Assembly: GCA_018062965.1 (NCBI GenBank)
Contig: JAGORG010000006.1
Location: forward strand, 1 to 56,559
DNA: 56,559 nt
From: Minisyncoccota bacterium
GTDB lineage: Bacteria > Patescibacteriota > Minisyncoccia > Phycocordibacterales > UBA5272
Direction of reading: 5' to 3'
The stretch's first letter is position 1. The number at the start of each line of letters is the position of its first letter. The notes below the pieces were generated by a model. The model was given only the letters and a program-made list of their open reading frames with translations, was not told where the DNA came from and did no database searches. The position numbers and the translations under genes were made by a program. Shown here piece after piece: positions 12,793 through 29,373 of the stretch.

Positions 12793-12808
12793 AAGCCATA
12801 CCTTGCCT

Positions 12809-12897: not shown

Positions 12898-12922
12898 CAA
12901 CTTCTGACTTTTATAGATACGG

Positions 12923-12951: not shown

Positions 12952-12974
12952 AAGCAAACTTTTTAAACCACATT

Positions 12975-13388
12975 ATGGCAGCAAAGAAAATTACAAAATA
13001 CGTAAAGGTTCAGATTGAAGCCGGCAAAGCAATGCCTGCTCCACCACTTGGTCCCGCCCTTGGGCAGGCTGGTGTTCAGATTGGGGATTTCGTTCAGAAA
13101 TTCAACGCTGCAACAAAAGACATGCAGGGTCGTCTTTCTGTAAAGATCTATGTATACGAAGATCGTACATACGATTTCGTTATCAAAACTCCAACAGCTA
13201 CATCTCTTGTTATGAAAGCAGCAAACGTTGCAAAAGGTAACTCAAAGGGAAATGCTGGAACAATCTCGTCTGACAAGATTCGTGAAATCGCAGAACTTAA
13301 ACTCAAAGACCTTACTGCTCACACAGTGGAACAGGCTATGAAGATTATCGAGGGAACTGCTCGTTCAATCGGTATCAAAGTAAAGTAG
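12975..13388 (+). CDS. rplK: 50S ribosomal protein L11
   Basis: KVQIEAGKAMPAPPLGPALGQAGV... canonical uL11. Confidence 0.95.
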   Translation: MAAKKITKYVKVQIEAGKAMPAPPLGPALGQAGVQIGDFVQKFNAATKDMQGRLSVKIYVYEDRTYDFVIKTPTATSLVMKAANVAKGNSKGNAGTISSDKIREIAELKLKDLTAHTVEQAMKIIEGTARSIGIKVK

Positions 13389-13393
13389 TCATA

Positions 13394-13426
13394 AAAATAC
13401 CCGCACCTCGCGGGTATTTTTATTTT
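13394..13426 (+). terminator. rho-independent terminator after rplK
   Basis: aaaatacccgc-acct-cgcgggtatttttatttt. Confidence 0.8.
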
Positions 13427-13502
13427 ATGGTAGTGTACTTGTGTACGCTCACACGTAAGTGTGTTTATTAACAAAGTTCTTTGCCCAAGGAGGGCGATTA
13501 TC

Positions 13503-14120
13503 ATGAAAGAGTTCGAAAAAGGTATTCCCCTTCAATGGGTTCCGGGTACCAATCCAAGTGTCCTCAGCAAAATGTTTCCTCACAAACTTCGCTTAGACTA
13601 TGAAAGACCAACTCGGCTTGATGTTGAAGCGCAAAAAGTAATCATTATTTCGCGGAGAGCAACTTGCCTCTTCTATGAAGTTGGTTCCACCATCTTTCAT
13701 GTGAAGGACGGTAACTTTTTTCATCTATCCGATGGCTATAACGGCCCTGCGAAAGGTGATGTTGATCCCCGTTATGCAGGTTGTGCACGGGTAGTAAATG
13801 GTGAATTGAAACAAGGTCAGGGGTTCTGCCGTGGTTCTCACTCTGAACTCAACAGTATTGGTAACAGTCCTGTCGACACGAGTCTTTACGATGACGTGCG
13901 GATGATGGTGACTCTTCATCCGTGCCACACATGTGCCAAGCAGATTGTGAACCGTGGCATCGGCACTGTCTACTACATCTGGGAGTACGGTCGCGAAGAG
14001 TTTGTTACAGAATATCTTCGTTCTAAAGGTGTGAAGGTTGAGCGCTACACTTCACCACTTCTTGAAAAATGGATAGAACTCAATGGCTATCAAGCGGTTG
14101 GATCCTGTTGTGGGCACTAA
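13503..14120 (+). CDS. deoxycytidylate (dCMP) deaminase
   Basis: Zn motifs HSELNSI and PCHTCAKQI. ATG 13503 follows the SD AAGGAGGG (13487-13494). Confidence 0.8.
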   Translation: MKEFEKGIPLQWVPGTNPSVLSKMFPHKLRLDYERPTRLDVEAQKVIIISRRATCLFYEVGSTIFHVKDGNFFHLSDGYNGPAKGDVDPRYAGCARVVNGELKQGQGFCRGSHSELNSIGNSPVDTSLYDDVRMMVTLHPCHTCAKQIVNRGIGTVYYIWEYGREEFVTEYLRSKGVKVERYTSPLLEKWIELNGYQAVGSCCGH

Positions 14121-14133
14121 CTAGCGATATTCA

Positions 14134-14162
14134 AAAAACTCGTTCTCGGACGAGTTTTTTTG
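14134..14162 (+). terminator. rho-independent terminator
   Basis: aaaaactcgt-tctcgg-acgagttttttt. Confidence 0.75.
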
Positions 14163-14175
14163 TTACAATGTATAT

Positions 14176-14595
14176 ATGAAACTCAAAATTAAAAAACTAC
14201 AACCAGAAGCTGTCTTACCGACATTTGCTTTAGAAAAAGATTCCGGTATTGATATGTTTGCATGTGGAGTTCAGACACTTCAACCTGGAGAGCTTAAGAA
14301 AATTTCTACTGGTGTTTCTATTCAGTTACCACCTGATCACGCGGGTCTTATTTGGGACAAATCAAGCGTTGGTTCAAAAGGTCTAAAAGTTTTTTGTGGC
14401 GTGTTTGATGAAGAGTATCGAGGTGAATATTTTATAGTAATAAAAAACTTTACAGATGCACCATATACATTTGAGCATGGGCAAAAGGTTGCACAGATGC
14501 TTATTCAAAAAATTGAACGACCAGAAATTATAGAGGTGGATGAACTTGACGCAACCGTACGTGGAGAAGGGGGTTTTGGAAGTACAGGAAAATAG
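14176..14595 (+). CDS. dut: dUTP diphosphatase
   Basis: 139 aa with GIDMFA, EYRGE and C-terminal RGEGGFGSTG motifs. Confidence 0.85.
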   Translation: MKLKIKKLQPEAVLPTFALEKDSGIDMFACGVQTLQPGELKKISTGVSIQLPPDHAGLIWDKSSVGSKGLKVFCGVFDEEYRGEYFIVIKNFTDAPYTFEHGQKVAQMLIQKIERPEIIEVDELDATVRGEGGFGSTGK

Positions 14596-14663
14596 TGTTT
14601 TGCTTTTGCATATAATTCCATGTAGGCTATAGATGGATTGTTTTTAACCAACAGGAGATTGAC

Positions 14664-15194
14664 ATGTTTGAAGGTAAAAAGGTTATCACTATTGGAGCTT
14701 TTTCAAAAGATTTTGCTGTGTATAGCAAAAACGGTGGTATTCCGTGGAGGATCCCCGAAGAGCAGCAACACTTCAAAGCAAAAACAATGGGACACGCTGT
14801 GATTATGGGGCGAAAGTCCTGGGAGTCACTTCCTTCCAAAATGCGTCCGCTTCCTGGACGAGAGAATGTTGTTATTACAAGGAGTAAAGATTTTGAAGCC
14901 GATGGTGCTCGAGTTGTGACCTCGCTTGAAGAAGCAATTCATACAGCTGATTCAGAAACTGTGTTTGTGACTGGCGGTCGCAACTTCTGGATTCCGGCGA
15001 TGGATTTTGCTGATGAGGCATGGATTACGGTTGTTCACATACAACAACCTGAAACTGAAGAAGTGCTTCTTCATGCAACGGAGATGCTTCACCTCCAGTT
15101 GTACTGGCCACAGTTTGAACTGTATCAAGTCGATAGAAAACAACCTACTGAGTCAACTCCAGGTTACGATGTTCAACATTGGATACGGCAGTAA
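14664..15194 (+). CDS. folA: dihydrofolate reductase
   Basis: GGIPWRIPEEQQHFKAKTMGHAVIMGRKSWESLP...LPGRENVVITRS. SD AGGAGA lies 5 nt upstream. Confidence 0.85.
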   Translation: MFEGKKVITIGAFSKDFAVYSKNGGIPWRIPEEQQHFKAKTMGHAVIMGRKSWESLPSKMRPLPGRENVVITRSKDFEADGARVVTSLEEAIHTADSETVFVTGGRNFWIPAMDFADEAWITVVHIQQPETEEVLLHATEMLHLQLYWPQFELYQVDRKQPTESTPGYDVQHWIRQ

Positions 15195-15196
15195 AT

Positions 15197-15227
15197 AAAA
15201 ACCCCGCGTAATGCGGGGTTGTTTTTT
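15197..15227. terminator. bidirectional terminator between convergent folA and thyA
   Basis: aaaaaccccgc-gtaat-gcggggtt-gtttttt. Confidence 0.8.
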
Positions 15228-16131
15228 ACTTGGCGACATCACCTTTGATGTGTGGATGGGCTTCATAGCCCTCAAACACAAAGTCCTCAAATACGAAATC
15301 CTCAATCCTTTTTCGTGGATTCAACTTAAACGTAGGAAGTGGATACGCTCTACGTGACAGTTGTAGCTCACATTGGCGAAAGTGGTTACTGTAAATGTGG
15401 CAATCGCCACCTGTCCAAATGAAGTCCCCAACTTCGAAGTCACACTGTTGTGCAACGATGTGCGTAAGCATTGCATAGCTTGCGATGTTGAATGGAACAC
15501 CCAAGAACCAGTCAGCGCTACGTTGATACAGCTTACAAGAAAGTCTACCTCCTGCAACATAGAACTGAAAGAATGCGTGACAGGGCATGAGGGACATTTT
15601 GTCGAGTTGTGCAACATTCCATGCGCTTATAAGCATTCTTCGTGAATCAGGGTTATTGCGGAGAATCTCAAGAACGCAAGCTAGCTGGTCGATAGTGTTT
15701 CCGTCATAGGTGGGCCATGCCCGCCACTGTTCGCCGTACACTGGGCCAAGCTCTCCACCTTTTTGTGCCCATTCGTCCCAAATGGTTACGCCGCGTTCCT
15801 TGAGCCAGTTGTTATTTGTCATACCGTTCATTATCCAGATGAGTTCGTGGGTGATCGCTTTTGTGTTGAGTTTTTTTGTTGTTATCAAAGGAAAGCCTTT
15901 TCGCAGGTCAAACCTCATCTGCAAACCAAACTTACTGATTGTCCCTGTGCCAGTACGATCCGTCTTGGGTGTACCGTTTGAGTAGATGTCGGCCATGCAG
16001 TCTTCGTAGGGACCTTGACCTGGGACAAAGCCAAGTTCATCAAGTGACTTCCGTGACGCAAATGCAGCAAGAGCATTTGTGCGTGCACGTTCAAATTTTT
16101 CCTGGGTGACAAGATTATGTTCGTAGTCCAT
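15226..16131 (-). CDS. thyA: thymidylate synthase (ThyA type)
   Basis: [36 protein letters not shown] 16131 is preceded by GGAGG. Confidence 0.9.
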
Positions 16132-16237
16132 GAAAACCTCCAAAGGTTACTGAAAAGATCTAAAGGATAACCTTGTTCACTGTACATGTTTTTTGTGGAC
16201 ATAACAAATATTGACAGTATGTTTACCTGTTGTAAAT

Positions 16238-16263
16238 AAAAATCGGCACCTGGGTGCCGATTT
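16238..16263 (-). terminator. terminator downstream of the second DHFR-like gene
   Basis: aaatcggcacc-cag-gtgccgattttt on the minus strand. Confidence 0.7.
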
Positions 16264-16276
16264 GGAAAAGTCTGTA

Positions 16277-16903
16277 TTACGCTTGCTTTGGTTTGAGGTA
16301 GTTACGAAACTCGAGCTGCACCTCGGCGGTACCCCACATATCTGTCATAGGAACACGCTCGCACTGCATGCCTGCAAATGTTTCATCACGAAGCAGCTCC
16401 GGAAGTCGACGAACCAAACCCTTTGTATGTGGACTCATAGCAACTGAGTCACACATCACGACGGTGATAAAAGCTGCATTGCAGAGTCCGCTCTTTAACC
16501 CTTCAAGCCAGACGGTCTCACCGCCAAACAGAAAGATATGCCCACAGTCTTTGAATTGCAGCGCTTGAGTAACAGCCTGGTGGATGTTCTGGGCAATGGC
16601 GGTACGGTTTTCACCATCTCGCCCTAGGTTAACGTCATGTTCCGTAAGTGTTTGAGACACAACGATAGTACGTCGTCCCGGGAGTGATCGTTTTCCGATT
16701 GAGTCAAATGTTCCACGTCCCATGATCAGTACGTTTTTTGTATCTGGAGCAAAGAGTGTGTTCCTTGTAATCAACACGAGTCGACCCATATCGAGCTTTA
16801 TAGCGCTTCGCCCTGTTTCGTTTGACCAGGGAAGATAGCTGCCGATACCAAAGACGCCATTTTGGTCAATGCCAGCAATGGGTGCAATAAGTCTGTCAGA
16901 CAT
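16277..16903 (-). CDS. second dihydrofolate reductase-like protein
   Basis: IAPIAGIDQNGVFG...LPW...VLIMGRGTFDSIGKRSLPGRRTIVVS is a DHFR-fold pattern. SD AAGGA upstream. Confidence 0.65.
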   Translation of the reverse strand: MSDRLIAPIAGIDQNGVFGIGSYLPWSNETGRSAIKLDMGRLVLITRNTLFAPDTKNVLIMGRGTFDSIGKRSLPGRRTIVVSQTLTEHDVNLGRDGENRTAIAQNIHQAVTQALQFKDCGHIFLFGGETVWLEGLKSGLCNAAFITVVMCDSVAMSPHTKGLVRRLPELLRDETFAGMQCERVPMTDMWGTAEVQLEFRNYLKPKQA

Positions 16904-17005
16904 GATGAATTCCTTTCAGTGAGGTTATATGAACTGTACTGTGCCCATCCTACACCAAATCGCTCATCTGTGAAAATGCCTTCAAATAAGGTAGTATTAG
17001 ATGAT

Positions 17006-18709
17006 ATGAATTCGTATGAATTAATCAGAGACGCGATTACACGTTTCATGGAAGAAAAAGGGGCTGCAGGTTCTTTTTCTCTTGACCAACCAGAAGATGT
17101 GGCGCATGGAGACTATGCAACTAATGCTGCATTTCTTTTGTCTAAAACGGTAGGACATTCACCTAAAGAATCCGCTGAAATGATGGTGGATAGTTTGCGC
17201 GGTGAACTATCTGAAACAGTGGAGCGCATCGAGATAGCAGGACCTGGGTTTATCAACTTCTATCTTCATGATGACGTACGAACAGATGAAGCAGAGGTGG
17301 TTGCGCTCAGTGATATTTCAAATACGTCTGGAAAAGGAAAGGTGATCGTTGAATACACAGATCCTAATCCGTTTAAACTATTTCATATCGGACATCTTGT
17401 GCCAAACGCAATCGGGGAATCTGTCGCTCGTATCTATGAAGCAGTTGGATACGATGTGACTCGTGTCTGCTATCAAGGAGATGTTGGTATGCATGTCGCT
17501 ACTACACTGTGGGGACTACAGCATCTTGGTGAAAGTTTTCCAGAAGAGAGTATTTCTTTGAAAGATAAAGTTGCGTATCTTGGCCGTGCGTATGCATACG
17601 GTACACAAGCTCTCGCGGAGAATGTATCCATAAAAGATGAGATTGTTACGCTCAACAAAAAGATATTTGCTCGAAGTGACGACGAGACAAACCGTGTATA
17701 TGATCTAGGTAAACAGTGGAGTCTGGATTATTTTGAAACACTCTACAAAAAACTTGGCACAACATTTGATCATTATATTTTTGAAAGTGAAGTAGGGGAT
17801 GATGGTATTCGCATTGTTCGAGAAAATATCGGAAAGGTATTTGAAGAATCAGATGGAGCGGTTGTCTTTAAGGGTGAAGATGTTGGATTGCATACTCGTG
17901 TGTTTATCAACTCACAAGGTCTTCCAACATACGAAGCTAAAGAGCTTGGAAATACCTATAAGAAGCAATCACTTGTTCCTGACGCAGAGCTTTCTGTTGT
18001 TGTAACAGCAAAAGAAATAGACGAATACTTTAAAGTTATTAAGGCAGTTCTTGATCAGATAGATAAACCTCTTGCAGACAAACTTCTCCATGTTTCTCAT
18101 GGCATGCTCCGTCTACCTGAAGGTAAGATGTCATCACGTAAAGGAAACGTCATTCCAGCTGAAGAGTTGATAGATATGGTGAGTGAAAAGATAACTGCAA
18201 GAATCGAAGACATGAAAGTAGATGCTGGTGACAAAGCGGCTCTTGTGAATGACATCGCAGTCGGTGCTATCAAATTTTCTATCCTCAAGTCTGCTCCTGG
18301 GAAAGATATGATTTTCGATTTTGAAAAGTCGCTCTCATTTGAAGGGGACTCAGGGCCGTACCTACAGTACACACACGCTCGACTCTCTGCATTGTTGGAC
18401 AAGGCTCATGCTGCCGCAATAGATATGGAGAGTTATGCAGTAGAATCACCAGAGCGAGCGCTTGAACAAGCAATTATTGGGTACACACAAGTGATTGAAA
18501 AAGCACACAAAGAACGTGGACCTCATCATATTGTTCAACATCTACTCGTGCTCACACGAGCATTTAATAACATGTATGGACGCGTACAGATTGTTGATGT
18601 AGAACACAAAGATACAAGTGGTTACTACTGCATGCTTGCACAAGCTACAAAAAATATTCTTGCACACGGGCTACGTACACTTGGTATCAAAGCCCCAGAG
18701 AGGATGTAG
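17006..18709 (+). CDS. argS: arginine--tRNA ligase
   Basis: Class I motifs NPFKLFHIGH and MSSRKG plus a C-terminal DALR-type domain. ATG 17006 was chosen because the longer ORF overlaps the convergent gene. Confidence 0.85.
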   Translation: MNSYELIRDAITRFMEEKGAAGSFSLDQPEDVAHGDYATNAAFLLSKTVGHSPKESAEMMVDSLRGELSETVERIEIAGPGFINFYLHDDVRTDEAEVVALSDISNTSGKGKVIVEYTDPNPFKLFHIGHLVPNAIGESVARIYEAVGYDVTRVCYQGDVGMHVATTLWGLQHLGESFPEESISLKDKVAYLGRAYAYGTQALAENVSIKDEIVTLNKKIFARSDDETNRVYDLGKQWSLDYFETLYKKLGTTFDHYIFESEVGDDGIRIVRENIGKVFEESDGAVVFKGEDVGLHTRVFINSQGLPTYEAKELGNTYKKQSLVPDAELSVVVTAKEIDEYFKVIKAVLDQIDKPLADKLLHVSHGMLRLPEGKMSSRKGNVIPAEELIDMVSEKITARIEDMKVDAGDKAALVNDIAVGAIKFSILKSAPGKDMIFDFEKSLSFEGDSGPYLQYTHARLSALLDKAHAAAIDMESYAVESPERALEQAIIGYTQVIEKAHKERGPHHIVQHLLVLTRAFNNMYGRVQIVDVEHKDTSGYYCMLAQATKNILAHGLRTLGIKAPERM

Positions 18710-18894
18710 ACAAAAAATTGATATCTACTAAGTTGGAACCAAGATACCGGCCAAGTTTGGTCTGTTCAAAGTAATTTGGTTCCTTCCTGTTTGTCAAACG
18801 TGCAACATGGAGCAAGTATTTTTTCATAGATTAATTAATAATATATGGTAAATATCAAGTCCTGGTTTGTTAGTTATGTTACACTTACATCATA

Positions 18895-19740
18895 ATGAAA
18901 AAATACGCTACACCGTTTCTTTTTTTTGTCTTTGCTATCTCAACAGTGCAAGCTCTTACTCCAGGCCTTAAGCTGACAGCAACAGGAAATGGAGATTCTG
19001 TGTTAATTGAGACAATAGGAGAACCTAATGTTCCAGTCGAACTTTACTACACATCAACGAAAGCCACTATGGAGAAGGTAACTCTCGGCACAACAGACGC
19101 CCAAGGTATCTTCTCTAAAGTCATAAGCACTGCTACATACTCCATTGATTCTTATTATAAAGTTACCTTGGTTGTTGGGTATCAAGAATTTCAAGATCAA
19201 AAATGGCCGTACAGGACTCGTCCACCATCACCGCCAATCCGTGTGAGTCCTGCAATTGTAACATTAACTCCCGGAGAGAAATCAACAATTGCCATTACTG
19301 GCGGGGGAGAACCTGATTCAATCCCATCGGTTACTTTTACTACTAGTGAGACCAAAGTCGCAGACCCATACTCCTTTGCAGATGATATGAAAAGTGTAGT
19401 TCTTATTGCTAAAAGTATAGGTACTACCACTATTCAAATTTGTCTTGATGATGCTTGTGCATCTGTGTTTGTGGTAGTTAAAAACGAAAAAGTCCAGACA
19501 CCTTTTTCATCCGGAACAGATACTAAGTTTATTTTTAGCCAAACGATGTCGCTGGGGTCAACTGGACCCGAAGTTGTTGAGCTACAAAAATTTCTTATTC
19601 GCCAAAAGTACCTCAAAAGTACAGCAACAGGATACTATGGTAACCTGACTATTGCTGCTGTGAGAAAATTCCAGAAAAATGCAGGTATTTCTCAAACAGG
19701 GGCGATTGGACCGGTAACACGAAGTTTCCTTAACAGGTAA
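18895..19740 (+). CDS. secreted protein with Ig-like segment and C-terminal peptidoglycan-binding domain
   Basis: Signal peptide. C-terminus GSTGPEVVELQKFL...YYGNLTIAAVRKFQKNAGISQTGAIG is PG_binding_1-like. Confidence 0.7.
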   Translation: MKKYATPFLFFVFAISTVQALTPGLKLTATGNGDSVLIETIGEPNVPVELYYTSTKATMEKVTLGTTDAQGIFSKVISTATYSIDSYYKVTLVVGYQEFQDQKWPYRTRPPSPPIRVSPAIVTLTPGEKSTIAITGGGEPDSIPSVTFTTSETKVADPYSFADDMKSVVLIAKSIGTTTIQICLDDACASVFVVVKNEKVQTPFSSGTDTKFIFSQTMSLGSTGPEVVELQKFLIRQKYLKSTATGYYGNLTIAAVRKFQKNAGISQTGAIGPVTRSFLNR

Positions 19741-19800
19741 GAGATACACGCTACTGCTCACCACATTGCTTTTATGTGTATTTGTTGTAATATAAATACA

Positions 19801-19978
19801 TAGCGTCGACGGGACTAATCACCCCTGAGCTTCGGGAAGAAAACCACATTGGCTAGTAGAACCCACAAATAAGGTCTGTGTATACAGATAAAACAAGGTG
19901 GTACCACGGGAATCAGCAGAAACTCGTCCTTGAGAAGCAATTCGTATGAATTGTTTTCCAAGGACGAGTTTTTATTTT
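19801..19978 (+). promoter_or_regulatory. T-box leader upstream of ileS
   Basis: T-box core aaGGTGGTACCaCGgg at 19895-19910. Terminator aactcgtccttg...caaggacgagtt plus a T-run. Candidate AUC(A) specifier at 19818-19821. Confidence 0.7.
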
Positions 19979-19996
19979 TATAACCAACATATATTC

Positions 19997-22900
19997 ATGG
20001 CAGAACAACCTAAACAAAAAACAATCAACGAAAAAGAACTCGAAACTCTCGCCTCATGGCAAGAGAACGAGATTTTTGAAAAGTCAGTTGCAACCCCAGC
20101 AGGCGAATCGCCTCGTGGACAGTTTTCGTTTTATGATGGTCCACCATTTGCAACAGGTATGCCACACCATGGGACGCTCATGGCAGGTACGGTGAAGGAT
20201 GTTATCCCTCGTTATCAAACCATGAAAGGTAACAGTGTTCGTCGTGTGTGGGGGTGGGACTGCCATGGTCTGCCAATTGAAAACCTCATCGAGAAAAAAC
20301 TTGGACTTCAGTCAAAGAAAGACATCGAAGAGTATGGAATAGACAAGTTCAATAAAGACGCATTTGATAGCGTGCTTCAATACGAAGCAGAATGGAAGAA
20401 AGTGATTCCTCGATTGGGTAGATTTGTCGACATGGAACATCCGTACAAGACGATGGATGCAACATACACTGAAAGTATTTGGTGGGCATGGAAACAGCTC
20501 ATGGAAAAAGGTCTTGCATATGAAGGTCACAAGATGATGCATATTTGTCCGAGATGTGAGACACCGCTTGCTCAGTCAGAAGTTGGGCTTGAGTATCATG
20601 ACGTTACTGACTTGTCTGTTACGGCGGAGTTTGAGCTCGTAGATGAGCCTGGTACGTTTGTGCTTGCATGGACAACAACACCGTGGACGCTTCCTGGAAA
20701 TACTGCGCTTGCCGTAAATAAGACAATTGCGTATGTAAAAGTGAAAAGTACTTTCGAAGACAAAACTAATTATTTTATTCTCGCAAAAAGTAAGGTAGAA
20801 GAATATTTTAAAGACAGTGCATTGATTGAAGTTGTGGAAGAATTTACTGGCGTTGCACTGATTGGAAAATCATATAAACCAGTTTTCTCATATTTCAAAA
20901 ATACAGAGATTGAAAACAAAGAAAATATCTGGAAAATTTGGCATGCAGATTTTATAACTGAAGATGCAGGTACTGGTATCGCGCACGAAGCACCAGCCTT
21001 TGGTGCAGAAGACATGGAACTCGCCAAGGCAAATAATATCCCAGTGATTAAGCATGTAAAGATGGATGGAACATTTATCGACGTGGTGACTGACTTTGCT
21101 GGCATGAAAGTAAAAGTAAAAGATGATACACAGTCTGCTGACATTGAAATCATCAAATACCTCGCACACAACGGAACTCTATTTGAAAAACATAAAATTA
21201 TTCACTCATATCCACTTTGCTGGCGATGTAAAACACCGCTTCTTAACTACGCAACAAGTAGCTGGTTCGTTGATGTTCCAAAGATGAAAGAAAAGCTTCT
21301 TTCAGAAAATCAGAGTATCGGGTGGACACCAGAACATATTCGCGATGGGCGATTTGGTAAATGGCTAGAAGGTGCTCGCGAGTGGGCTGTTTCCCGTACA
21401 CGGTACTGGGGCGCACCGCTTCCTGTGTGGAAGAACGCAGACGGAAGCGAACTAAAAGTGATTGGATCTCTCAAGGAGTTGGCTCATAATAGACTTCCTA
21501 AAAATACATACTATGTGATGCGACATGGTCAGGCACAGAGTAATGTACGGGGGATTATTGAAGTAGGAGACGATATAACAAACACACTTACCGACGAAGG
21601 AAAAGCTCACATAGAAGAACAATCTCAAGCTCTGCGAGAACATCATATCGATATGATTGTCGCTTCTCCTGTACTTCGTTCTATGCAAACTGCGGAAATC
21701 GTGAGCCGTGTTCTCGGTGGTGTTCCAGTCGTGTGCGATGATCGTTTACGAGAAAACAACGTTGGAGTATTTAACGGAAAAACAATTGACGAGTATCTAG
21801 CTTCAGAAGGTTCAACTGACTTTCTTCGCATGAAGCATCGCCCAGAAGGAGGGGAGACGCATGAAGAAATACAGAATCGCATGATGGCAGTGTTTATGGA
21901 TTGCGAAAAGGAACATGTTGGCAAAACCATTCTGTTCATTAGTCACGGTGGACCGCTTCGTATGTTAATTGCGGGCACTGCTCTTAAGACAGAGGAAGAA
22001 ATTCTTGCTGATGAAATGGAAGAGCATACACAAATGTATTTGAAAAATGGAGAGTTTCAAAAACTTGATGAAGTTTACTTGGTGCCACGAGATGAAACAG
22101 GTGCTGTTAATCTGCATCGTCCATATATTGACGATGTGACATTTGTAGACAGTAAAGGTGAAACAATGAAGCGTATACCAGATGTGTTTGATTGTTGGTT
22201 TGAATCAGGGTCTATGCCATTTGCTTCCCTTCATTATCCGTTTGAGAACAAAGACATATTTGATAAAAATTATCCAGCAGATTTCATTGCAGAGAGTATG
22301 GATCAAACACGAGGGTGGTTCTACTCACTCATTAATCTTGGTGTTGGGCTCTTTGATAAAGCGCCATACAAACATGTTATCTGTAACGGACTTATTAACG
22401 GAGCTGATGGTCAAAAGATTTCAAAGAGTCTTGGAAATTACACAGACCCACTTCTTTTGGTTGAAAAGTTTGGCGCGGACGCTTTCCGTTACTACATGAT
22501 GTCGAGTCCTGTTATCAAGGGAGAAAGTGTTAACTTCAAAGATACTGAACTCGAAGACGTATACAAGAAACTCATTATGCGTCTTGAAAATGTTTTGTCA
22601 TTATATGAAATGAACAAACCAGCCAGTGTGTCGCGAAGTGCTGCATCAGAAGATGTTCTTGATACATGGATTATTAGCCGTGTACATGAAGTAGTCAAGG
22701 CTACGACGGATGGGTACGAACAGTACAAGCTTGATGAAGCGGTACGACCGGTTGATCAGTTCGTGGATGATCTTTCTGTGTGGTATGTTCGTCGTGCTCG
22801 TTCACGTCTTAAGGGGGACGAAGGGGAGGATGTGCGCAATCGTACATACGAAACGCTCTCATATGTACTACATACATTTGCTCGTACGATTGCTCCTGTT

Positions 22901-23449
22901 ATGCCGTTTATAGCAGAGCGTATATACACAATCGTTGCAGGTGAAAAAGAATCTGTGCATCTTGAGTCATGGCCTGGGGTGGGTGTAACCGATGGAGATG
23001 TGATAGCGCGCATGAAAACAGCGCGAGAGGTTGTATCAAGTGCTCTTATGAAAAGAACTGAGAGTAAAATCGCTGTTAGACAACCACTTGCAACACTTAC
23101 TATCACTGAAGATTTACCAGAAAGCTATCTCTCTATTATCCAAGAAGAAGTGAACGTAAAAGCTGTTACTGTTGGAGCTGAGCTATCGCTTGATACAACG
23201 ATAACAGAAGACCTTCGTATTGAAGGGGATATTCGAAACCTTATGCGCGCAGTACAAGACAAGAGAAAAGAGATGAATCTTTCCCCAAAAGATGGTATCT
23301 CTCTTACCCTTCAAACACCGTACGACCTTGGAGATGTTTCAGAACTTTCTCGTGTATGTAACATACAAACTATTTCACGCAGTGATACTTCACAAGAAAC
23401 AGAAGTTGCTTTGTCACAAGGCTCTGCCTCGTTTACTATTACGCTCTAA
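19997..23449 (+). CDS. ileS: isoleucine--tRNA ligase (type 2) with an inserted histidine-phosphatase domain
   Basis: GPPFATGMPHHGT and KISKS motifs plus a CP1 editing region. About 200 extra aa at roughly 21490-22110 carry the RHG and SHGG motifs. Confidence 0.9.
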   Translation: MAEQPKQKTINEKELETLASWQENEIFEKSVATPAGESPRGQFSFYDGPPFATGMPHHGTLMAGTVKDVIPRYQTMKGNSVRRVWGWDCHGLPIENLIEKKLGLQSKKDIEEYGIDKFNKDAFDSVLQYEAEWKKVIPRLGRFVDMEHPYKTMDATYTESIWWAWKQLMEKGLAYEGHKMMHICPRCETPLAQSEVGLEYHDVTDLSVTAEFELVDEPGTFVLAWTTTPWTLPGNTALAVNKTIAYVKVKSTFEDKTNYFILAKSKVEEYFKDSALIEVVEEFTGVALIGKSYKPVFSYFKNTEIENKENIWKIWHADFITEDAGTGIAHEAPAFGAEDMELAKANNIPVIKHVKMDGTFIDVVTDFAGMKVKVKDDTQSADIEIIKYLAHNGTLFEKHKIIHSYPLCWRCKTPLLNYATSSWFVDVPKMKEKLLSENQSIGWTPEHIRDGRFGKWLEGAREWAVSRTRYWGAPLPVWKNADGSELKVIGSLKELAHNRLPKNTYYVMRHGQAQSNVRGIIEVGDDITNTLTDEGKAHIEEQSQALREHHIDMIVASPVLRSMQTAEIVSRVLGGVPVVCDDRLRENNVGVFNGKTIDEYLASEGSTDFLRMKHRPEGGETHEEIQNRMMAVFMDCEKEHVGKTILFISHGGPLRMLIAGTALKTEEEILADEMEEHTQMYLKNGEFQKLDEVYLVPRDETGAVNLHRPYIDDVTFVDSKGETMKRIPDVFDCWFESGSMPFASLHYPFENKDIFDKNYPADFIAESMDQTRGWFYSLINLGVGLFDKAPYKHVICNGLINGADGQKISKSLGNYTDPLLLVEKFGADAFRYYMMSSPVIKGESVNFKDTELEDVYKKLIMRLENVLSLYEMNKPASVSRSAASEDVLDTWIISRVHEVVKATTDGYEQYKLDEAVRPVDQFVDDLSVWYVRRARSRLKGDEGEDVRNRTYETLSYVLHTFARTIAPVMPFIAERIYTIVAGEKESVHLESWPGVGVTDGDVIARMKTAREVVSSALMKRTESKIAVRQPLATLTITEDLPESYLSIIQEEVNVKAVTVGAELSLDTTITEDLRIEGDIRNLMRAVQDKRKEMNLSPKDGISLTLQTPYDLGDVSELSRVCNIQTISRSDTSQETEVALSQGSASFTITL

Positions 23450-24003
23450 TGGCTATAGACAAGTACACTACCAAAAGTATTGTGTTGGCGTCATACCCGC
23501 AAGGCGAACATGACCGGGTGTACAAACTTTTTACTCGTGACTTTGGTATGGTTATGGCTCATGCAAAAAGCATTAGAAGATTAGAGAGTAAATTGCGTTC
23601 CCATGTTGAACCAGGGAACCTTAGTGTTGTTACTTTGGTTAAAGGTCGCGACATATGGCGTCTAGTTGGTGCTGAACGCGAATATATAACATCGCCGTAC
23701 CTACCTCTCATCACAGCCCTCCTTGCGCGATTCATACAAGGAGAAGGCACGTATAAGGCGCTCTATGATCGCATCGTACAGGTACTTGCTGTTGCTCCAT
23801 CGTACGATAAAGACATAACGCACATCCTCGTTTACTACGTCCTTCTTGTTGGTCTGGGGTATGCAGATGCTCGAGTGATCGGCACCAAAGACATTAACGA
23901 ATACGTCACATGGTCAGCAGATGATTTGTATACACATATGGTTCTTCGCAAACAAGAGGTGAGAACCCATGTGCATATGGTGCTTAAGGAAATGCAGCTC
24001 TAA
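23449..24003 (+). CDS. recO: DNA repair protein RecO (short form)
   Basis: N-terminal OB-fold pattern SIVLASYPQGEHDRVYKLFTRDFGMVMAHAKSIRR. The start overlaps the ileS stop (TAATG). Confidence 0.65.
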   Translation: MAIDKYTTKSIVLASYPQGEHDRVYKLFTRDFGMVMAHAKSIRRLESKLRSHVEPGNLSVVTLVKGRDIWRLVGAEREYITSPYLPLITALLARFIQGEGTYKALYDRIVQVLAVAPSYDKDITHILVYYVLLVGLGYADARVIGTKDINEYVTWSADDLYTHMVLRKQEVRTHVHMVLKEMQL

Positions 24004-24029
24004 TAGTAAAGTCTTGGTATACTAAGAAG

Positions 24030-25889
24030 ATGAACAATGAGAAAAAAAGCTCGCTTGAAAAACTGGAAGGAGCGCTGTATGACAGAGGGAGAGAGGAGGT
24101 TACACCACAAGTTCACGGTATACGAACAGCTCGCAATGAAGACGTTCCAACATCCTGGGGTGAGCGCACCGCAGCTGTTACTCCAACCAAAGAAGAAAAA
24201 GGTCTTTCTTTCGGTGCTAGGTTTTTAATCGCCTCAACGGCACTTCTTGTATGTGCAATACTTTTTACGGTATGGCGTGTTGTTTCACTTCGAAATGTAG
24301 TTTCTTCTGCAAACATTGATATCGTAGTTGATTCAACGCCATATATTGAAGGAGGGGAAAATCTTCCAGTTTCGGTAAGTATCAATAACAGAAACACAAT
24401 CGATCTCAAAGAAGCGACGCTTAGCTTTTCATATGACAAAGGAGTAGGTGAAGCTGAGGAGCAACAAAAAATAACTGAAAAACGAGTACTCGGAGATATA
24501 CCAACCAATCAACTCAAAAAAGAAAACTTTGATGTTGTTGTATACGGTGAAGAATCAACAACCCGAGATCTTATTGCTAAACTCGAGTACAAAATAGATG
24601 GGTCAAACGCACTTTTTAGTAAAGTGGTGACGGGTTCTGTAGTACTCAAATCTCCTCCAGTATCTGTTACGTTAGACGGTCCGGTATCACTCACTCCAGG
24701 GCAGCTTGGTATCTATACATTGCGTGTTCGTAACAACTCTACATCTCCAAGTCTTCCTCTTAAGCTTGTTTTCAATACACCGCTTACATTTACAAAAGAC
24801 ACTGTTTCTCCAAAACAAACATCTTCTCGTGAAATAAGTTGGAACATAGAACCGCTCACTCCGGGGGAATCAAAGACATACACAGTGTCTGGGTCGTTTA
24901 CTGGTGGAGGAGGTGAAAGTCTCGTTCTTAAAGCCGTAGCTGGAAGTGCGCAAGGTAGTGGAGATATACAAGTTGTATTCTCACAAGTTACAAAAGATAT
25001 CACATTGCGAGCCACCCCGCTCAAGCTCGGAATATTTGCCGATAGTGATAGAGGAGATGTTTCGTCACTTCGTTTCGGAGATCGCCCGACTATTACAGTT
25101 ACATACGAAAACGCAAGTCAGCAAACACTTCGCAATGTAGAGCTCGAAGCAATTCTCGGTGGGGATGCTGCGGTCGCTAGCGAAATTAGTCCTGAGAATG
25201 GATACTATAACTCTGTAGCGAGAAGTATTGTTTGGAATAAGGCAACATTTCCAGAGTTAGAAAATGTTCGCCCAGGAGCAAAGGGTGCTGTTCGTGTCAT
25301 TGTACCAATAGTTACTCAAGGAGCAGTTAATCCATCCCTTCGTTTGGATGTTATAGGTAGAGCAGACATACTAGAGCCGCTAGATGTACAAACAAGCAGT
25401 AGCAAGTCGTGGGCAGTACAGGGAGCAGCAAGTATAAACGGCTGGACATCGTACAAGGATTCACCTTTTGCAAATAGCGGACCACTCCCACCAAAAGCAA
25501 ACATCCCAACTACATATACACTTCATCTTGTTGCTTCATCTCAAAATACGCTTGCTGGTACAAAGGTTTCATTTATTCTTCCTGTGTATGTTACGTGGCA
25601 AAATGTGTTTACAAGTAACGCTAACATTACCTACAACGCAAATACTCGTACGGTGACGTGGAATGTAGGTACCTTACAAGGTGGAAAAACAGTTGCTGCG
25701 GATATTCAGGTATCGGTTCGTCCTTCGCTTAGTCATGTGGGGACGTCTCCTTCAATAACATCAGGAATAACCCTCGATGCCGAAGAGGCTGATTCAAAGG
25801 CTCGCATCAAAAATACACTTAATCCGCTTACAACAGCTCTTTCTCGAGAAGTTGGTGGCGCGCAAGTCTCTCGTGTCGTTTCTGAATAA
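24030..25889 (+). CDS. hypothetical membrane-anchored, beta-rich extracellular protein
   Basis: 619-aa ORF with one N-terminal TM and repeated beta-strand-rich segments. Confidence 0.7.
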   Translation: MNNEKKSSLEKLEGALYDRGREEVTPQVHGIRTARNEDVPTSWGERTAAVTPTKEEKGLSFGARFLIASTALLVCAILFTVWRVVSLRNVVSSANIDIVVDSTPYIEGGENLPVSVSINNRNTIDLKEATLSFSYDKGVGEAEEQQKITEKRVLGDIPTNQLKKENFDVVVYGEESTTRDLIAKLEYKIDGSNALFSKVVTGSVVLKSPPVSVTLDGPVSLTPGQLGIYTLRVRNNSTSPSLPLKLVFNTPLTFTKDTVSPKQTSSREISWNIEPLTPGESKTYTVSGSFTGGGGESLVLKAVAGSAQGSGDIQVVFSQVTKDITLRATPLKLGIFADSDRGDVSSLRFGDRPTITVTYENASQQTLRNVELEAILGGDAAVASEISPENGYYNSVARSIVWNKATFPELENVRPGAKGAVRVIVPIVTQGAVNPSLRLDVIGRADILEPLDVQTSSSKSWAVQGAASINGWTSYKDSPFANSGPLPPKANIPTTYTLHLVASSQNTLAGTKVSFILPVYVTWQNVFTSNANITYNANTRTVTWNVGTLQGGKTVAADIQVSVRPSLSHVGTSPSITSGITLDAEEADSKARIKNTLNPLTTALSREVGGAQVSRVVSE

Positions 25890-25908
25890 TCTGTGTTAGG
25901 ATTAGGGT

Positions 25909-26958
25909 ATGAACGAAAAAACATATGTCTCCATTTCTACGGGGAGTGTCCTTAAAATTATAGGGATTTTGGTGTTTGCTTGGGCGCTCTTTTACGTGCG
26001 AGATTTTGTCGTGGCGCTCTTGGTTGCTGTTGTTTTGGCATCTGCCGCAGAACCGCCTGTTCGTCTTCTTTCAAAGTATGGCGTACCACGTGGTCTTGCT
26101 GTTGGAATTTTATTCTTGTCATTGTTTGCAATCATTGCCGCTGTTGCGCTTATCTTTATTCCGCCACTCGCAGACGACGTAGCTCGATTCGTCCGTACAC
26201 TTCCACAGCTTTTGGAGTCTATACGCATCTTTGGAAAAGATATGGGATTCGGAGACTTGGCTGCATCACTTAATACACTCTCTCAAGATATTTCAAAAGG
26301 GCAGATTCTTACAGTTCTCAAAAATACATTCTTTGGTTCAACTGGTGTCTTTGCAACATCCGCTGCTGTTATCAGTAGTGTATTTAACCTTGTTATTACG
26401 TTTGTGCTTGCATTTTATCTCGCACTCGAAGAACGTGGTGTGCAAAAGTTTCTTAGACTTATTGTTCCACGATCACATGAACTATACATTGAAGATCTCT
26501 GGAGTCGTGCTCAGCGAAAGATTTCTCTTTGGATGCAAGGGCAACTACTCCTTTCATTCCTTGTTGCGCTTCTTGTGTATGTTCCGATGCTTATCTTGAG
26601 TATGCCGTACGCTGCGCTTCTCGCTGTGCTTGCATTTGCTGGTGAACTTATCCCGATGGTTGGGCTTACGCTTGCAACTATTCCTGCGCTTGCTATCGCA
26701 TGGACTCATGGCGGACTGCCTCTCCTTGGTATTGTTGCGATTATCTACTTTATTATCGCTCAACTTGAAAACCATGTGCTCTACCCAAAGGTGATGAACA
26801 AAATGGTGGGTGTGCCTTCGGTTATTGTTATCATCGCGCTTATCATTGGAGCAAAGTTTGCAGGTATCTGGGGTATCATTCTCTCTGTTCCGCTCGCGTC
26901 TATCTTCATGGAATTCATAGGAGATATGGAAAAGAAGAAAACATCACATGGTGAATAA
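25909..26958 (+). CDS. AI-2E family (PerM/UPF0118) transporter
   Basis: 349 aa with about 8 TM segments. The layout and the C-terminal GIWGIILSVPLAS segment are typical of the family. Confidence 0.7.
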   Translation: MNEKTYVSISTGSVLKIIGILVFAWALFYVRDFVVALLVAVVLASAAEPPVRLLSKYGVPRGLAVGILFLSLFAIIAAVALIFIPPLADDVARFVRTLPQLLESIRIFGKDMGFGDLAASLNTLSQDISKGQILTVLKNTFFGSTGVFATSAAVISSVFNLVITFVLAFYLALEERGVQKFLRLIVPRSHELYIEDLWSRAQRKISLWMQGQLLLSFLVALLVYVPMLILSMPYAALLAVLAFAGELIPMVGLTLATIPALAIAWTHGGLPLLGIVAIIYFIIAQLENHVLYPKVMNKMVGVPSVIVIIALIIGAKFAGIWGIILSVPLASIFMEFIGDMEKKKTSHGE

Positions 26959-28390
26959 GCCTTTTTACATCACTACAACACTTCCTTATGTAAACGCAGA
27001 ACCACACTTGGGTCATGCGCTTGAGTTTGTGCGAGCGGACGTGGTCGCACGATACAAAAAGTCTCTCGGGTACGATGTGTTTTTTAACACAGGAACAGAT
27101 GAGCATGGAACCAAAATCCTAGAAGGAGCAGAAAAAGAGGGGATACCGGTACAAGAATACGTCGACCGCAATGCGGCACGTTTCAAAGAGTTATATCCAA
27201 AACTCGGCATCACAGATGACATTCATTTTATTCGTACAACAGACGACGTGCACATCAAAGCGGCGCAAGAGATGTGGAAGAGATGCGAAGCAAACGGTTA
27301 CATCTACAAAAAAGAGTATGAAGCAACATACTGTGTTGGATGTGAGCTCTACAAAACAGACAGTGAGCTTGTAGATGGTAAATGTCCTATTCACCCAAAT
27401 CGCGACATTGAAATTATCAAAGAAGAAAATTACTTCTTTGATTTTAAGAAAGTTGCGCCACTTCTTAAAAAACTATACGAAGAGAATCCGACACTTGTAA
27501 TACCTGACTTTCGTTTTAACGAAATCAAAGCGTTTCTTGATCGCGGGCTTGAAGACTTTTCTATTTCACGTTTGAAATCAAAAATGTCATGGGGTGTTCC
27601 AGTACCAGGAGATGATGAGCATGTGATGTACGTATGGTTTGATGCGCTCACAAGTTATATTTCTACACTTGGCTGGCCAGATGAGTCTGGAGATTTTAGA
27701 TATTGGAAAGAGGGAACACCAGTGCAATACTGTGGAAAGGACAACCTTCGTCAACAGTCTGCTATTTGGCAGGGTATGCTTTTGGCTGCTGGACTTCCTC
27801 ATACACACAACATCATCATCGACGGATTTATCATTTCTGGTGGACAAAAGATGAGTAAGTCAATTGGAAACGTAATCAACCCATTTGATGTGATTGAAAT
27901 GTTTAAAGATGTAACTGATTACCCAGAAGACGTGTTGCGATTTATCTTGCTTCACGAAGTGCCTTCATTTGAAGATGGAGACATAACGATCGAGTCTATT
28001 AAAACTGCATACACTGCATATCTCGCAAATGGAATTGGGAACCTCACGAGTCGTATTATGAAGATGGCTACAGTAAACGGTGTTACGTTGCAAGGGGACG
28101 GAACTATAGAACTGAGTAATTATTTTGAAGATTATAATGTAAATGTAGCTCTGCATGTCCTTATGCACAAAGTTTCTCAAATCGATAAAACGATAGCAGA
28201 CAGTGAGCCTTTTAAGCTCATAAAAACAGAGCCAGAAAAAGCTAAAGAAATTATTCGCCAGTTAATAAGAGAGTTGTATGCCTGTGCAAAGGCACTTGAA
28301 GTATTTATACCAAAAACTTCTGCAAAGATTTTAGAATGCATTCGTGAGAATAAGATGCCAGAAAAGCCTCTCTTTGCCAGACTCGCTTAA
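26948..28390 (+). CDS. metG: methionine--tRNA ligase
   Basis: PYVNAEPHLGHALE (HIGH region), KMSKSIGN, and a CxxC...C knuckle. Confidence 0.9.
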   Translation: MVNKPFYITTTLPYVNAEPHLGHALEFVRADVVARYKKSLGYDVFFNTGTDEHGTKILEGAEKEGIPVQEYVDRNAARFKELYPKLGITDDIHFIRTTDDVHIKAAQEMWKRCEANGYIYKKEYEATYCVGCELYKTDSELVDGKCPIHPNRDIEIIKEENYFFDFKKVAPLLKKLYEENPTLVIPDFRFNEIKAFLDRGLEDFSISRLKSKMSWGVPVPGDDEHVMYVWFDALTSYISTLGWPDESGDFRYWKEGTPVQYCGKDNLRQQSAIWQGMLLAAGLPHTHNIIIDGFIISGGQKMSKSIGNVINPFDVIEMFKDVTDYPEDVLRFILLHEVPSFEDGDITIESIKTAYTAYLANGIGNLTSRIMKMATVNGVTLQGDGTIELSNYFEDYNVNVALHVLMHKVSQIDKTIADSEPFKLIKTEPEKAKEIIRQLIRELYACAKALEVFIPKTSAKILECIRENKMPEKPLFARLA

Positions 28391-28395
28391 TCTGT

Positions 28396-28761
28396 ATGAA
28401 AAAAACGTACAACAAACTTGTTCGTGACAAAATGATAGACATCTATAAGCACGATGTTGAGAACAAAATAAGCGCGAGTGGTTATAGTGTGCGCTACATG
28501 GAACGTGAGGAAACACTTGAACGCTTGAAAGATAAATTACTTGAAGAAGCACAAGAGGTGTTCGAGGCCTACGGAAAAGAAGACAAAACCGCTCTTAAAG
28601 AAGAACTCGCAGACGTGATCGAAGTGATAGATGCAATTCTTTATCACAACGATATTTCTCTCACTGAAGTGCTTGCGATTCGTGATGCGAAAAAAGAAAA
28701 GAAAGGTGGTTTTGAAACAGGGCTCTTTTTGGAAAGTATTGATTATTTTGATACCAAATAA
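28396..28761 (+). CDS. MazG-like nucleoside triphosphate pyrophosphohydrolase family protein
   Basis: KLVRDK...LLEEAQEV...EELADVIEVIDAI all-alpha NTP-PPase pattern. Confidence 0.6.
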   Translation: MKKTYNKLVRDKMIDIYKHDVENKISASGYSVRYMEREETLERLKDKLLEEAQEVFEAYGKEDKTALKEELADVIEVIDAILYHNDISLTEVLAIRDAKKEKKGGFETGLFLESIDYFDTK

Positions 28762-28764
28762 CAT

Positions 28765-29373
28765 ATGACTCCGCATTCACAGGGTTTGATAGATATAGGA
28801 AAGTTAGCCTTCAGATTTTCAAAGACTAATCGAGTTACGCTTCATGAAGATGGGGAATATGAATCAAACACGGACCACACTGTTATGCTGTCGCTTTGTG
28901 CATGCGCGCTTGCCTCTGCTTTGTACAAAGAAAAGTTAGATATCGGTAAAGTTGCGCAGTTTGCTATTGTTCATGATTTGGTTGAAGCGTATGTAGGGGA
29001 TACAAATACTATCAACATTTCAGACACTGCTCGTGCAGAAAAAGACAAGAGGGAGATGGACTCACTTCTAAAAATTGAAGCAGAGTTTAAACACATATAT
29101 CCGTGGATACACACTACGATTGCCGAGTATGAGCGTCGCGATACACCAGAAGCGCGTTTTGTGAAAACACTCGACAAGTCGATGACTAAAATCACCAACA
29201 CAATAAACAAAGGTGCTGCCCTTAGAAAACTTGGAACAACACGAGAAGAAATAGAAAAACACTTCGTCACTCAACTTAATGAGTACAGAAAAAAGTACGG
29301 AGAAGAGTTTCCAGAACTCATGGACATAACAGAAGAGCTCATGAATAATATGTTACAAGAAATATATGTATAA
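28765..29373 (+). CDS. HD-domain phosphohydrolase (YfbR-like 5'-nucleotidase)
   Basis: ESNTDHT...VHDLVEAYVGDT HD motif. Confidence 0.65.
   Translation: MTPHSQGLIDIGKLAFRFSKTNRVTLHEDGEYESNTDHTVMLSLCACALASALYKEKLDIGKVAQFAIVHDLVEAYVGDTNTINISDTARAEKDKREMDSLLKIEAEFKHIYPWIHTTIAEYERRDTPEARFVKTLDKSMTKITNTINKGAALRKLGTTREEIEKHFVTQLNEYRKKYGEEFPELMDITEELMNNMLQEIYV

Follow-up and report, generated by a model that had tools for sequence, protein, structure and literature searches.

A histidine phosphatase domain nested in the isoleucyl-tRNA synthetase of a Minisyncoccota bacterium and of related Patescibacteria

Aminoacyl-tRNA synthetases are, to our knowledge, among the most conserved of enzymes, and every extra domain known to us in them has so far pointed to editing, signalling, complex assembly or the like. 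The 56,559-nucleotide contig JAGORG010000006.1 of a Minisyncoccota bacterium (GenBank assembly GCA_018062965.1), analysed whole and called the window hereafter, raises the question of why a second enzyme should lie inside such a protein, since its isoleucyl-tRNA synthetase (IleRS) gene, ileS, encodes a histidine phosphatase (HP) domain within the synthetase body. An initial annotation, made from the sequence letters, had described a complete, in-frame HP domain at a point where type-2 IleRS has a short linker. This description was borne out: the insert alone matches Pfam His_Phos_1 (PF00300) over positions 2-158 of the 194-position profile, with 122.3 bits (cut-off 21.7, E 2.6e-35), and yeast IleRS has 8 residues at the same place.

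The nested domain and its synthetase host

The gene lies in a single plus-strand open reading frame (ORF; 19946..23449, 1167 aa) that, as the initial annotation had stated, contains neither a stop codon nor a frameshift, and independent gene calls place its start at the ATG at 19997, yielding a 1150-aa IleRS. Residue numbers (for instance aa 514-721 for the insert) refer to the 1167-aa ORF from 19946, and CP1 to CP3 denote the connective peptide (CP) segments in the following features.

19997..23449, + strand: ileS, type-2 IleRS with nested phosphatase, 1150 aa (TIGR00392, gene calls, 90% cluster)
19997..21484, + strand: N-terminal IleRS part, comprising the first half of the Rossmann fold, CP core, CP1 editing domain, CP2 and the first half of CP3, ending ...GSLKELA (aligns with yeast IleRS 12-489)
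20165..20176, + strand: HIGH signature, reading HHGT, with Thr for the fourth His (motif reading)
21485..22108, + strand: inserted HP module with linkers, aa 514-721 (Pfam, alignment, AlphaFold2, Foldseek)
21512..21979, + strand: Pfam His_Phos_1 core match, aa 523-678 (Pfam)
21521..21529, + strand: RHG motif, with Arg526, the nucleophile His527 and Gly528 (motif reading, conservation)
21677..21679, + strand: Arg578, second phosphate-binding arginine, in ASPVLR (conservation)
21752..21754, + strand: Glu603, presumed proton donor, in LRE (conservation)
21944..21946, + strand: His667, second catalytic histidine, in SHG (conservation)
22019..22108, + strand: C-terminal return linker, ...YLKNGEFQKLDEVYLVPRDETGAV (stand-alone comparison, full-length model)
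22109..23446, + strand: C-terminal IleRS part, comprising the second half of CP3 (NLHRPYID...), the second half of the Rossmann fold, the KMSKS loop, and the anticodon-binding and C-terminal domains (aligns with yeast IleRS 498-867)
22415..22429, + strand: KMSKS signature, reading KISKS (motif reading)

The insert comprises some 208 residues. When the protein is aligned with solved type-2 and eukaryotic IleRS, the flanks of the insert are contiguous, and about 207 residues of the window protein face the 8 residues of the yeast enzyme within 489-498. The peptides quoted in the initial annotation all read in frame, both around the start and end of the insert (VWKNADGSELKVIGSLKELA, aa 494-513; YYVMRHGQAQSN, 522-533; NLHRPYIDDVTF, 722-733) and within it (ASPVLRSMQTA, 573-583; LRENNVGVFNG, 601-611; EGGETHEE, 634-641; FISHGGPLR, 664-672). 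The interval first proposed for the insertion, 21490-22110, begins out of frame, the in-frame limits being 21485..22108. No change in GC content or skew was found across the insert.

Misassembly is ruled out by several independent sequences. An 18.5-kb contig in the Logan assembly of SRR11088391 matches positions 12249..30792 of the window with 100% identity and encodes the identical 1150-aa protein; the 90%-identity protein cluster has 13 members, 8 of them full length, drawn from four sources (JGI, ENA, Logan and NCBI); and contig L089, from a different study, shows 89% DNA identity over 8.8 kb with the same architecture and junctions. The ratio of nonsynonymous to synonymous substitution rates (dN/dS, Nei-Gojobori) between the window and L089 genes is 0.038 for the insert, 0.056 for the N-terminal and 0.071 for the C-terminal IleRS part, and the insert is therefore constrained at least as much as the synthetase. 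We accordingly give almost no credence to an assembly chimera, or to a decaying or catalytically dead remnant that serves only as a structural spacer: nothing was found to support either, the dN/dS of the insert is low, the architecture recurs across assemblies and studies independent of one another, the insertion site is common to more than 140 clusters, and in more than 150 diverged domains, tandem copies included, the catalytic residues do not vary. The initial annotation had named a misassembly, or an ordinary subdomain devoid of the catalytic residues, as the ways in which it might prove wrong; the independent assemblies and the retained RHG and SHG residues show neither to be the case.

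By sequence and model, the insert is classified as a member of the branch-1 histidine phosphatase superfamily, of the short PhoE/PspA type. The catalytic set of this branch is complete (R526, H527, G528, R578, E603 and H667), the domain spans about 175-190 aa, and the motif after the catalytic Glu is LRExxxGxxxG. The AlphaFold2 model of the domain (predicted local distance difference test score, pLDDT, 89.2) finds its best Foldseek matches in PspA (4ij6), a riboflavin-pathway phosphatase (9mmh) and PhoE (1h2e), with template modelling (TM) scores of 0.72-0.77 and root-mean-square deviations of 2.2-2.6 A, and the closest solved proteins by sequence are PhoE/YhfR (E 2e-13), followed by the phosphoserine phosphatase PspA. 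The insert is almost certainly a real domain and, judging from its sequence, a catalytically active phosphatase. A further relative of the insert (P0003, 336 aa, 32% identity) is fused to a NUDIX hydrolase domain.

The insert reaches none of the NCBIfam equivalog cut-offs. Its top NCBIfam match is the archaeal model NF038349 for cofactor-dependent phosphoglycerate mutase (dPGM), which speaks for a glycolytic mutase hitch-hiking in IleRS. The score of that match is, however, 93.5 bits against a cut-off of 225, TIGR01258 (pgm_1) reaches 25.6 against 81.7, and the remaining dPGM models reach 21-38 against 305-378. Members of the dPGM family are recognized by an ERHYG-type motif and by a longer cap and C-terminal tail that bring them to about 230-250 aa, some 50 residues more than the phosphatases. 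The insert has LRExxxGxxxG instead of ERHYG and lacks those residues, and its target-normalized TM scores are 0.63-0.68 with dPGMs versus 0.72-0.78 with PspA and PhoE, the Foldseek coverage of the dPGM targets being the less complete. We thus rejected the dPGM assignment, whose truth would be very surprising, and the initial label of "PGM-like" is correct at the level of the superfamily but not at that of the mutase.

The synthetase motifs are intact on both sides of the insert, in agreement with the initial annotation. The NCBIfam model TIGR00392 (ileS) matches with 832.4 bits against a cut-off of 621.4, its alignment breaking off at the insert and continuing beyond it, and in Pfam the tRNA-synt_1 match is interrupted by His_Phos_1 and followed downstream by Anticodon_1 and DUF5915. 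The class I, editing and tRNA-pocket motifs KISKS, TTTPWT, GTGIAHEAP, WAVSRTRYWG and DQTRGWF are all kept, with HIGH present as the variant HHGT. The best PDB matches are the IleRS of yeast, IleRS2 of P. megaterium and the IleRS of T. thermophilus (E 6e-200 to 3e-188), the type-1 enzyme of S. aureus matching far more weakly (E 6e-85); type-2 IleRS is the eukaryote-like, mupirocin-resistant form. Because these motifs are intact, the dN/dS of the IleRS body is low and no second ileS occurs in the 56-kb window, we infer that the synthetase charges tRNA-Ile. Among 58 HP-bearing relatives, the HIGH motif mostly reads H[YMI]GH, with G[ILV]HH in at least 12; the swapped motif G[ILV]HH has been reported to confer mupirocin hyper-resistance in IleRS2 (PMC10485003).

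Alignment to diverse IleRS, proposed as a check in the initial annotation, confirmed the insertion point and assigned it to CP3. In yeast IleRS, CP3 comprises residues 459-526 (PMC7955072), so that the insertion point falls inside it, about 25 residues past the CP2-CP3 linker (ARDWNVSRNRYWG in yeast, WAVSRTRYWG here), which in the yeast enzyme lines the pocket for the tRNA CCA end (PMC7955072). The structure of CP3 varies: it is beta-beta-alpha-alpha in Candida, includes a zinc knuckle in Thermus and consists of three helices in Staphylococcus (PMC7191050). In many relatives a CxxC motif flanks the insert on both sides, and the HP therefore occupies the loop of a zinc knuckle; the window protein is without those cysteines. 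The AlphaFold2 model of the full-length protein (mean pLDDT 92.3, predicted TM score 0.87) superposes on IleRS2 (8c8v) and on the yeast IleRS-tRNA complex (8wnd) with Foldseek TM scores of up to 0.9 on the target, and the return linker (...VPRDETGAV) is confident in this model, its last 10 or so residues not being so in the domain-only model.

An intein, or another self-splicing or mobile insertion, was considered and rejected: no splicing motifs occur at the junctions ...KELA|HNRLPKN... and ...ETGAV|NLHRP..., no Hint-type domain was matched by Pfam in the protein, there is no compositional break, and the junction residues are not conserved.

Spread and conservation in Patescibacteria

The spread of the insertion was surveyed with an exhaustive HMMER profile search of 1.84 billion cluster representatives, of which the best 150 representatives of 50% clusters were analysed. 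The HP is carried by 145 of these 150, and the complete proteins measure about 1100-1250 aa. Mapping the representatives onto the window IleRS with its insert removed assigns 143 domains to the CP3 site of the window (site A). A second site holds 6 domains, after ...SMPxAxxHYPF and before FPADFIAEG, and a third holds 5, between the KMSKS/stem-contact region and the anticodon-binding helices; both were confirmed by reading proteins P0138 and P0121 and by NCBIfam coordinates. Some IleRS have two sites filled or carry tandem copies, as in four Peribacteria loci (L024, L026, L028 and L029), whose IleRS of about 1470-1490 aa have a tandem pair of HP domains at site A, each of which scores strongly against the profile.

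The catalytic residues are conserved throughout these domains. Arg526 and His527 are invariant in 154 of 154 related domains, Arg578 is kept in 154 of 155 and His667 in all 151 that are ungapped, and residue 603 is Glu in 146 and Asp in 8 of 155. N533, E637 and R645 are nearly invariant as well, and the conservation of the catalytic residues extends to the tandem copies and to those at the alternative sites.

A scan of GTDB species genomes yielded at least 26 insert-bearing loci, which among the matches listed are all from Patescibacteria metagenome-assembled genomes, apart from one locus labelled Gammaproteobacteria, probably wrongly. This agrees with the placement of the organism in the Candidate Phyla Radiation (CPR) by the initial annotation. 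The lineages among the matches listed are Paceibacteria, Minisyncoccia, Yanofskybacteria, Spechtbacterales, Staskawiczbacteria, Peregrinibacteria/Peribacteria and some labelled Saccharibacteria, and insert-less type-2 IleRS occur, among the same matches, in Actinomycetota, Bacteroidota, Bacillota and a few CPR lineages. None of the GTDB matches listed is closely related to the window organism, the best having 42-43% identity in the insert region. Where these proteins have public names, they read "isoleucyl-tRNA synthetase" or, for fragments, "histidine phosphatase family protein, partial". Full-text searching of about 8 million papers and preprints retrieved no account of a histidine phosphatase within or next to a tRNA synthetase; the HP-IleRS pairing thus seems to be previously undescribed, domain insertions in synthetases being in themselves a known theme.

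Stand-alone genes and other fusions

The same phosphatase also occurs as a separate gene beside ileS. In a Ca. Staskawiczbacteria locus (L025), a stand-alone 190-aa phosphatase begins MKLKNKYYIMRHGQAKSNV, the counterpart in the window reading PKNTYYVMRHGQAQSNV, and the gene order is argS-HP-ileS, with the HP start overlapping the argS stop and 4 nt separating the HP stop from the insert-less ileS that follows. A profile of the domain alone retrieves many stand-alone Patescibacteria HP proteins of about 188-200 aa, with scores (195-210 bits) as high as those of nested copies, and in the contexts of three stand-alone HP genes a class I synthetase gene lies within a few genes downstream in all three, with argS directly upstream in two. 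The stand-alone proteins end where the fold ends, after the last beta strand, which falls inside the return-linker segment of the window protein; the extra ...DEVYLVPRDETGAV of the window beyond this point is the return linker.

Next, 80 metagenome loci were chosen solely for their similarity to the phosphatase, with a set of closer HP sequences as query. The HP is nested in ileS in 46 of these 80 loci, always at site A, and stands alone in the other 34. Among the 22 stand-alone loci with at least 600 nt of downstream sequence, ileS starts within 400 nt downstream of the HP in 19 and further downstream in 1, the HP being fused to TsaC instead in the remaining 2; argS lies directly upstream in 10 of the 22 stand-alone loci with an upstream flank. 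A separate HP gene near a fused ileS was found neither in the 26 fused genome loci, nor in the fused metagenome loci, nor in the window, and the fused and stand-alone states are therefore complementary. On these data, the IleRS of much of the CPR carries the insertion more often than not. The initial annotation had called the insertion unusual, which holds for synthetases in general but not in the sense of rare, given this frequency and the alternation with a stand-alone gene.

In a neighbour-joining tree of IleRS cores from which the HP had been removed, rooted on non-CPR type-2 IleRS and crude as a method, the split lineages form two clades nested among the fused ones. Under Fitch parsimony, all 30 bootstrap replicates have a fused root and require two changes. 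The fused and split states thus appear to have interconverted at least twice, and parsimony favours an old insertion followed by two fissions, although several independent insertions from a neighbouring HP gene could have produced the same distribution. An HP that is fused to IleRS in some lineages and adjacent to it in others presents a "Rosetta stone" pattern.

Beyond IleRS, the domain is joined to other synthetase-type enzymes. A truncated 1161-aa protein from an ENA contig (P0126) is a valyl-tRNA synthetase (ValRS) with at least four HP copies, one located in the CP2 region and a tandem of three behind WGHRIPVWY, the point equivalent to the CP3 site. One locus (L140, 5369-7555) encodes an arginyl-tRNA synthetase (ArgRS) and an HP in a single ORF, followed by ileS; this is a single lineage, in which a sequencing error may be responsible. 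The fusions of HP with TsaC, a threonylcarbamoyl-AMP synthase (L142, 1615-2943; L143, 1-1254), are likewise from one lineage only.

Several further observations concern these genes and their neighbourhood. In locus L084 (6550-9582), an alpha/beta-hydrolase domain (Hydrolase_4 / Abhydrolase_1 / Ser_hydrolase) lies within a bacterial-type leucyl-tRNA synthetase (LeuRS; TIGR00396, 956 bits), after about residue 381. This adds a second kind of guest enzyme to the class I synthetases of the CPR; a stand-alone HP gene lies two genes upstream of the LeuRS gene. In two loci (L087, 5570-6160; L088, 3939-4529), a gene for a CYTH protein (triphosphate tunnel metalloenzyme) lies between the stand-alone HP and ileS. 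The corresponding slot of the window, between argS and ileS, holds a different gene.

16976..18709, + strand: argS (arginyl-tRNA synthetase), upstream of ileS (gene calls)
18895-19740: secreted-looking PG_binding_1 protein, between argS and ileS, in the slot of the stand-alone HP in split lineages

Elsewhere in the window, two dihydrofolate reductase genes (14664-15194, + strand; 16277-16903, - strand) flank a thymidylate synthase gene (15226-16143, - strand), with a dUTPase and a dCMP-deaminase-like gene just upstream of this cluster (14664-16903). The window also holds a tmRNA gene (38631-39024, - strand, Rfam 87 bits), one tRNA gene (41805-41877, - strand), no rRNA gene and, at 51868-54763, a 546-aa protein that unites a phosphoribosyltransferase domain with a PQQ-like beta-propeller and is followed by a YcaO-domain protein.

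Possible roles and comparison with known systems

The HP is genetically tied to IleRS and under strong purifying selection. We infer that it probably also partners IleRS in function, beyond mere co-expression. Coupling of this kind is favoured on three grounds: synthetase-type enzymes have acquired the HP again and again, and no other kind of enzyme has done so in the 80-locus sample; the split HP genes stay tightly adjacent to ileS; and only internal placements in IleRS are seen, though losing a single stop codon would suffice to join the two end to end.

The same observations bear on a passenger phosphatase, that is, one with a housekeeping job unrelated to aminoacylation, for instance on a metabolite, that a streamlined genome keeps with ileS only for the sake of co-expression, the IleRS acting as a tolerant scaffold. 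This explanation is doubtful but carries appreciable weight: the nearest structural matches of the HP are phosphatases of small molecules (PspA, the riboflavin-pathway HFP and PhoE), CP3 is a variable and permissive subdomain, as its differing topologies in Candida, Thermus and Staphylococcus indicate, the alpha/beta-hydrolase in LeuRS and the N-acetyltransferase (GNAT) family NF040702 suggest that CPR class I synthetases tolerate insertions in general, and the adjacency to ileS may be a relic if the fused state is ancestral. It does not sit easily with the repeated independent capture of the HP at three IleRS sites and in ValRS, ArgRS and TsaC, with the absence of any other class of partner among the 80 loci sampled by HP similarity alone, with the position of split HP genes within a few nucleotides of ileS across diverged lineages, or with the lack of an end-to-end HP-IleRS fusion among the best 150 representatives and the 80 loci.

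Our preferred explanation, a bifunctional IleRS-phosphatase in which partnership is combined with the clearing of a reaction product, attains as a whole slightly less than even confidence. A working type-2 IleRS would carry, in its CP3 surface subdomain, an HP of the PhoE/PspA type that is predicted to be catalytically competent, and the HP would be entered and left through two short linkers, so that both folds could stay whole. The partnership of IleRS and HP would be old in Patescibacteria, the domain being nested in some lineages and present in others as an orthologue of about 190 aa directly upstream of an insert-less ileS. His527 would then attack the terminal phosphate of a small by-product of the adenylate reaction, either pyrophosphate or a nucleotide phosphate, and so clear the product at its source.

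The last of these steps, clearance of pyrophosphate or a nucleotide phosphate, is ranked first among the candidate activities because IleRS, ValRS, ArgRS and TsaC all turn ATP into an adenylate and pyrophosphate; it is nevertheless a weak and rather improbable guess. Several points weigh against it. We know of no branch-1 histidine phosphatase that hydrolyses pyrophosphate. A general clearing of product does not predict that the link to ileS (19/22) should be stronger than that to argS (10/22). As regards the coupling itself, the adjacency seen in split lineages could, if the fused state is ancestral as parsimony suggests, partly be a relic of fission and not separate support for it. Complete Peribacteria genomes have been reported with an ordinary inorganic pyrophosphatase (PMC4736985); as Peribacteria also have IleRS with tandem HP, the domain is not simply a stand-in for a missing enzyme, and the proposal that it substitutes for an absent pyrophosphatase is weakened.

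A broader formulation, which we consider less likely than not, is that a dedicated HP, nested in CP3 or bound as a neighbouring gene's product, is physically joined to the class Ia aminoacylation machinery of Patescibacteria and provides a hitherto unrecognized accessory activity needed for efficient or protected charging. Its mode could be the hydrolysis of pyrophosphate or nucleotides, the clearing of a phosphate block from the tRNA end, or the disarming of a phosphorylated inhibitor. Were such an accessory activity real, the capture of the domain at three IleRS sites and by ValRS, ArgRS and TsaC would reflect selection for proximity to the adenylate site.

Among the specific activities, an HP that removes a 2'/3'-phosphate, or a pyrophosphate left by a nuclease or toxin, from the tRNA 3' end and thereby enables charging is improbable. 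Toxins that pyrophosphorylate tRNA ends are known, all fusion partners of the HP are tRNA-related, and the insertion starts about 25 residues after the linker that lines the CCA-end pocket, with the same CP3 point used in ValRS. The HP domains are, however, not basic (median pI 7.3; pI 5.1 and net charge -6.7 per 100 aa for the window insert), and this neutral to acidic charge is likewise unsupportive of a tRNA-binding module. We know of no branch-1 member that acts on RNA ends, repair confined to tRNA-Ile is hard to justify, and TsaC is not primarily a tRNA-binding enzyme.

Still less probable is a protein phosphatase that reverses inhibitory phosphorylation of the synthetase, for instance by HipA-like kinase toxins at the ATP site. 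The superfamily does include the protein phosphatases SixA, PGAM5 and Sts-1, SixA models give weak matches to the HP, and its short cap, in a domain of about 175-190 aa, implies that the active site is rather open. Against this, no kinase gene lies beside the window gene or the inspected stand-alone HP loci, there is no PADLOC match, and one tethered phosphatase per substrate, or up to four in P0126, would be an atypical deployment. A role as a component of a defence system was rejected on the same lack of a PADLOC model match.

Taken together, these data place another catalytic centre, from a class not known to have been connected with aminoacylation, inside the IleRS of a very large bacterial radiation. 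In genomes as minimal as these, a retained HP domain is unlikely to be dispensable, and the fused and split forms amount to a natural experiment on the IleRS-HP partnership. If the two activities are coupled, they would represent a new step in running or protecting tRNA charging and may partly explain the unusual protein architecture of the CPR; if they are uncoupled, the locus is still a well-supported example of an essential gene in which a domain has been inserted and split off.

Compared with known systems, the host conforms to type-2 IleRS (P. megaterium 8c8v, yeast 7d5c/8wnd and T. thermophilus 1ile), with which it is collinear outside the insert, matching in fold and in retained motifs; it differs from them in about 208 extra residues that form a second enzyme fold in CP3 and in a HIGH motif that reads HHGT. 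The guest shares fold, size class, catalytic set and post-Glu motif with PhoE/YhfR of Geobacillus stearothermophilus (1h2e), PspA of Hydrogenobacter thermophilus (4ij5/4ij6) and HFP (9mmh), to which it is only 21-26% identical; unlike them, it is nested in, or genetically tied to, a tRNA synthetase. As an autonomous domain that leaves its class I synthetase host undisrupted, the HP resembles the CP1 editing domain, the leucine-specific domain of LeuRS and the N-acetyltransferase domain of the IleRS family NF040702, a family to which the window protein does not belong (313.6 bits against a cut-off of 1999). Those guests, however, act on aminoacyl-tRNA or the adenylate, or belong to another enzyme class, whereas the HP is a phosphomonoesterase fold without a known role in aminoacylation. 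Some eukaryotes have fusions of ATP sulfurylase, APS kinase and pyrophosphatase, in which a family I pyrophosphatase is joined end to end. If the HP clears pyrophosphate, these fusions would be its functional analogue, from which it would differ in being nested and of the histidine phosphatase type.

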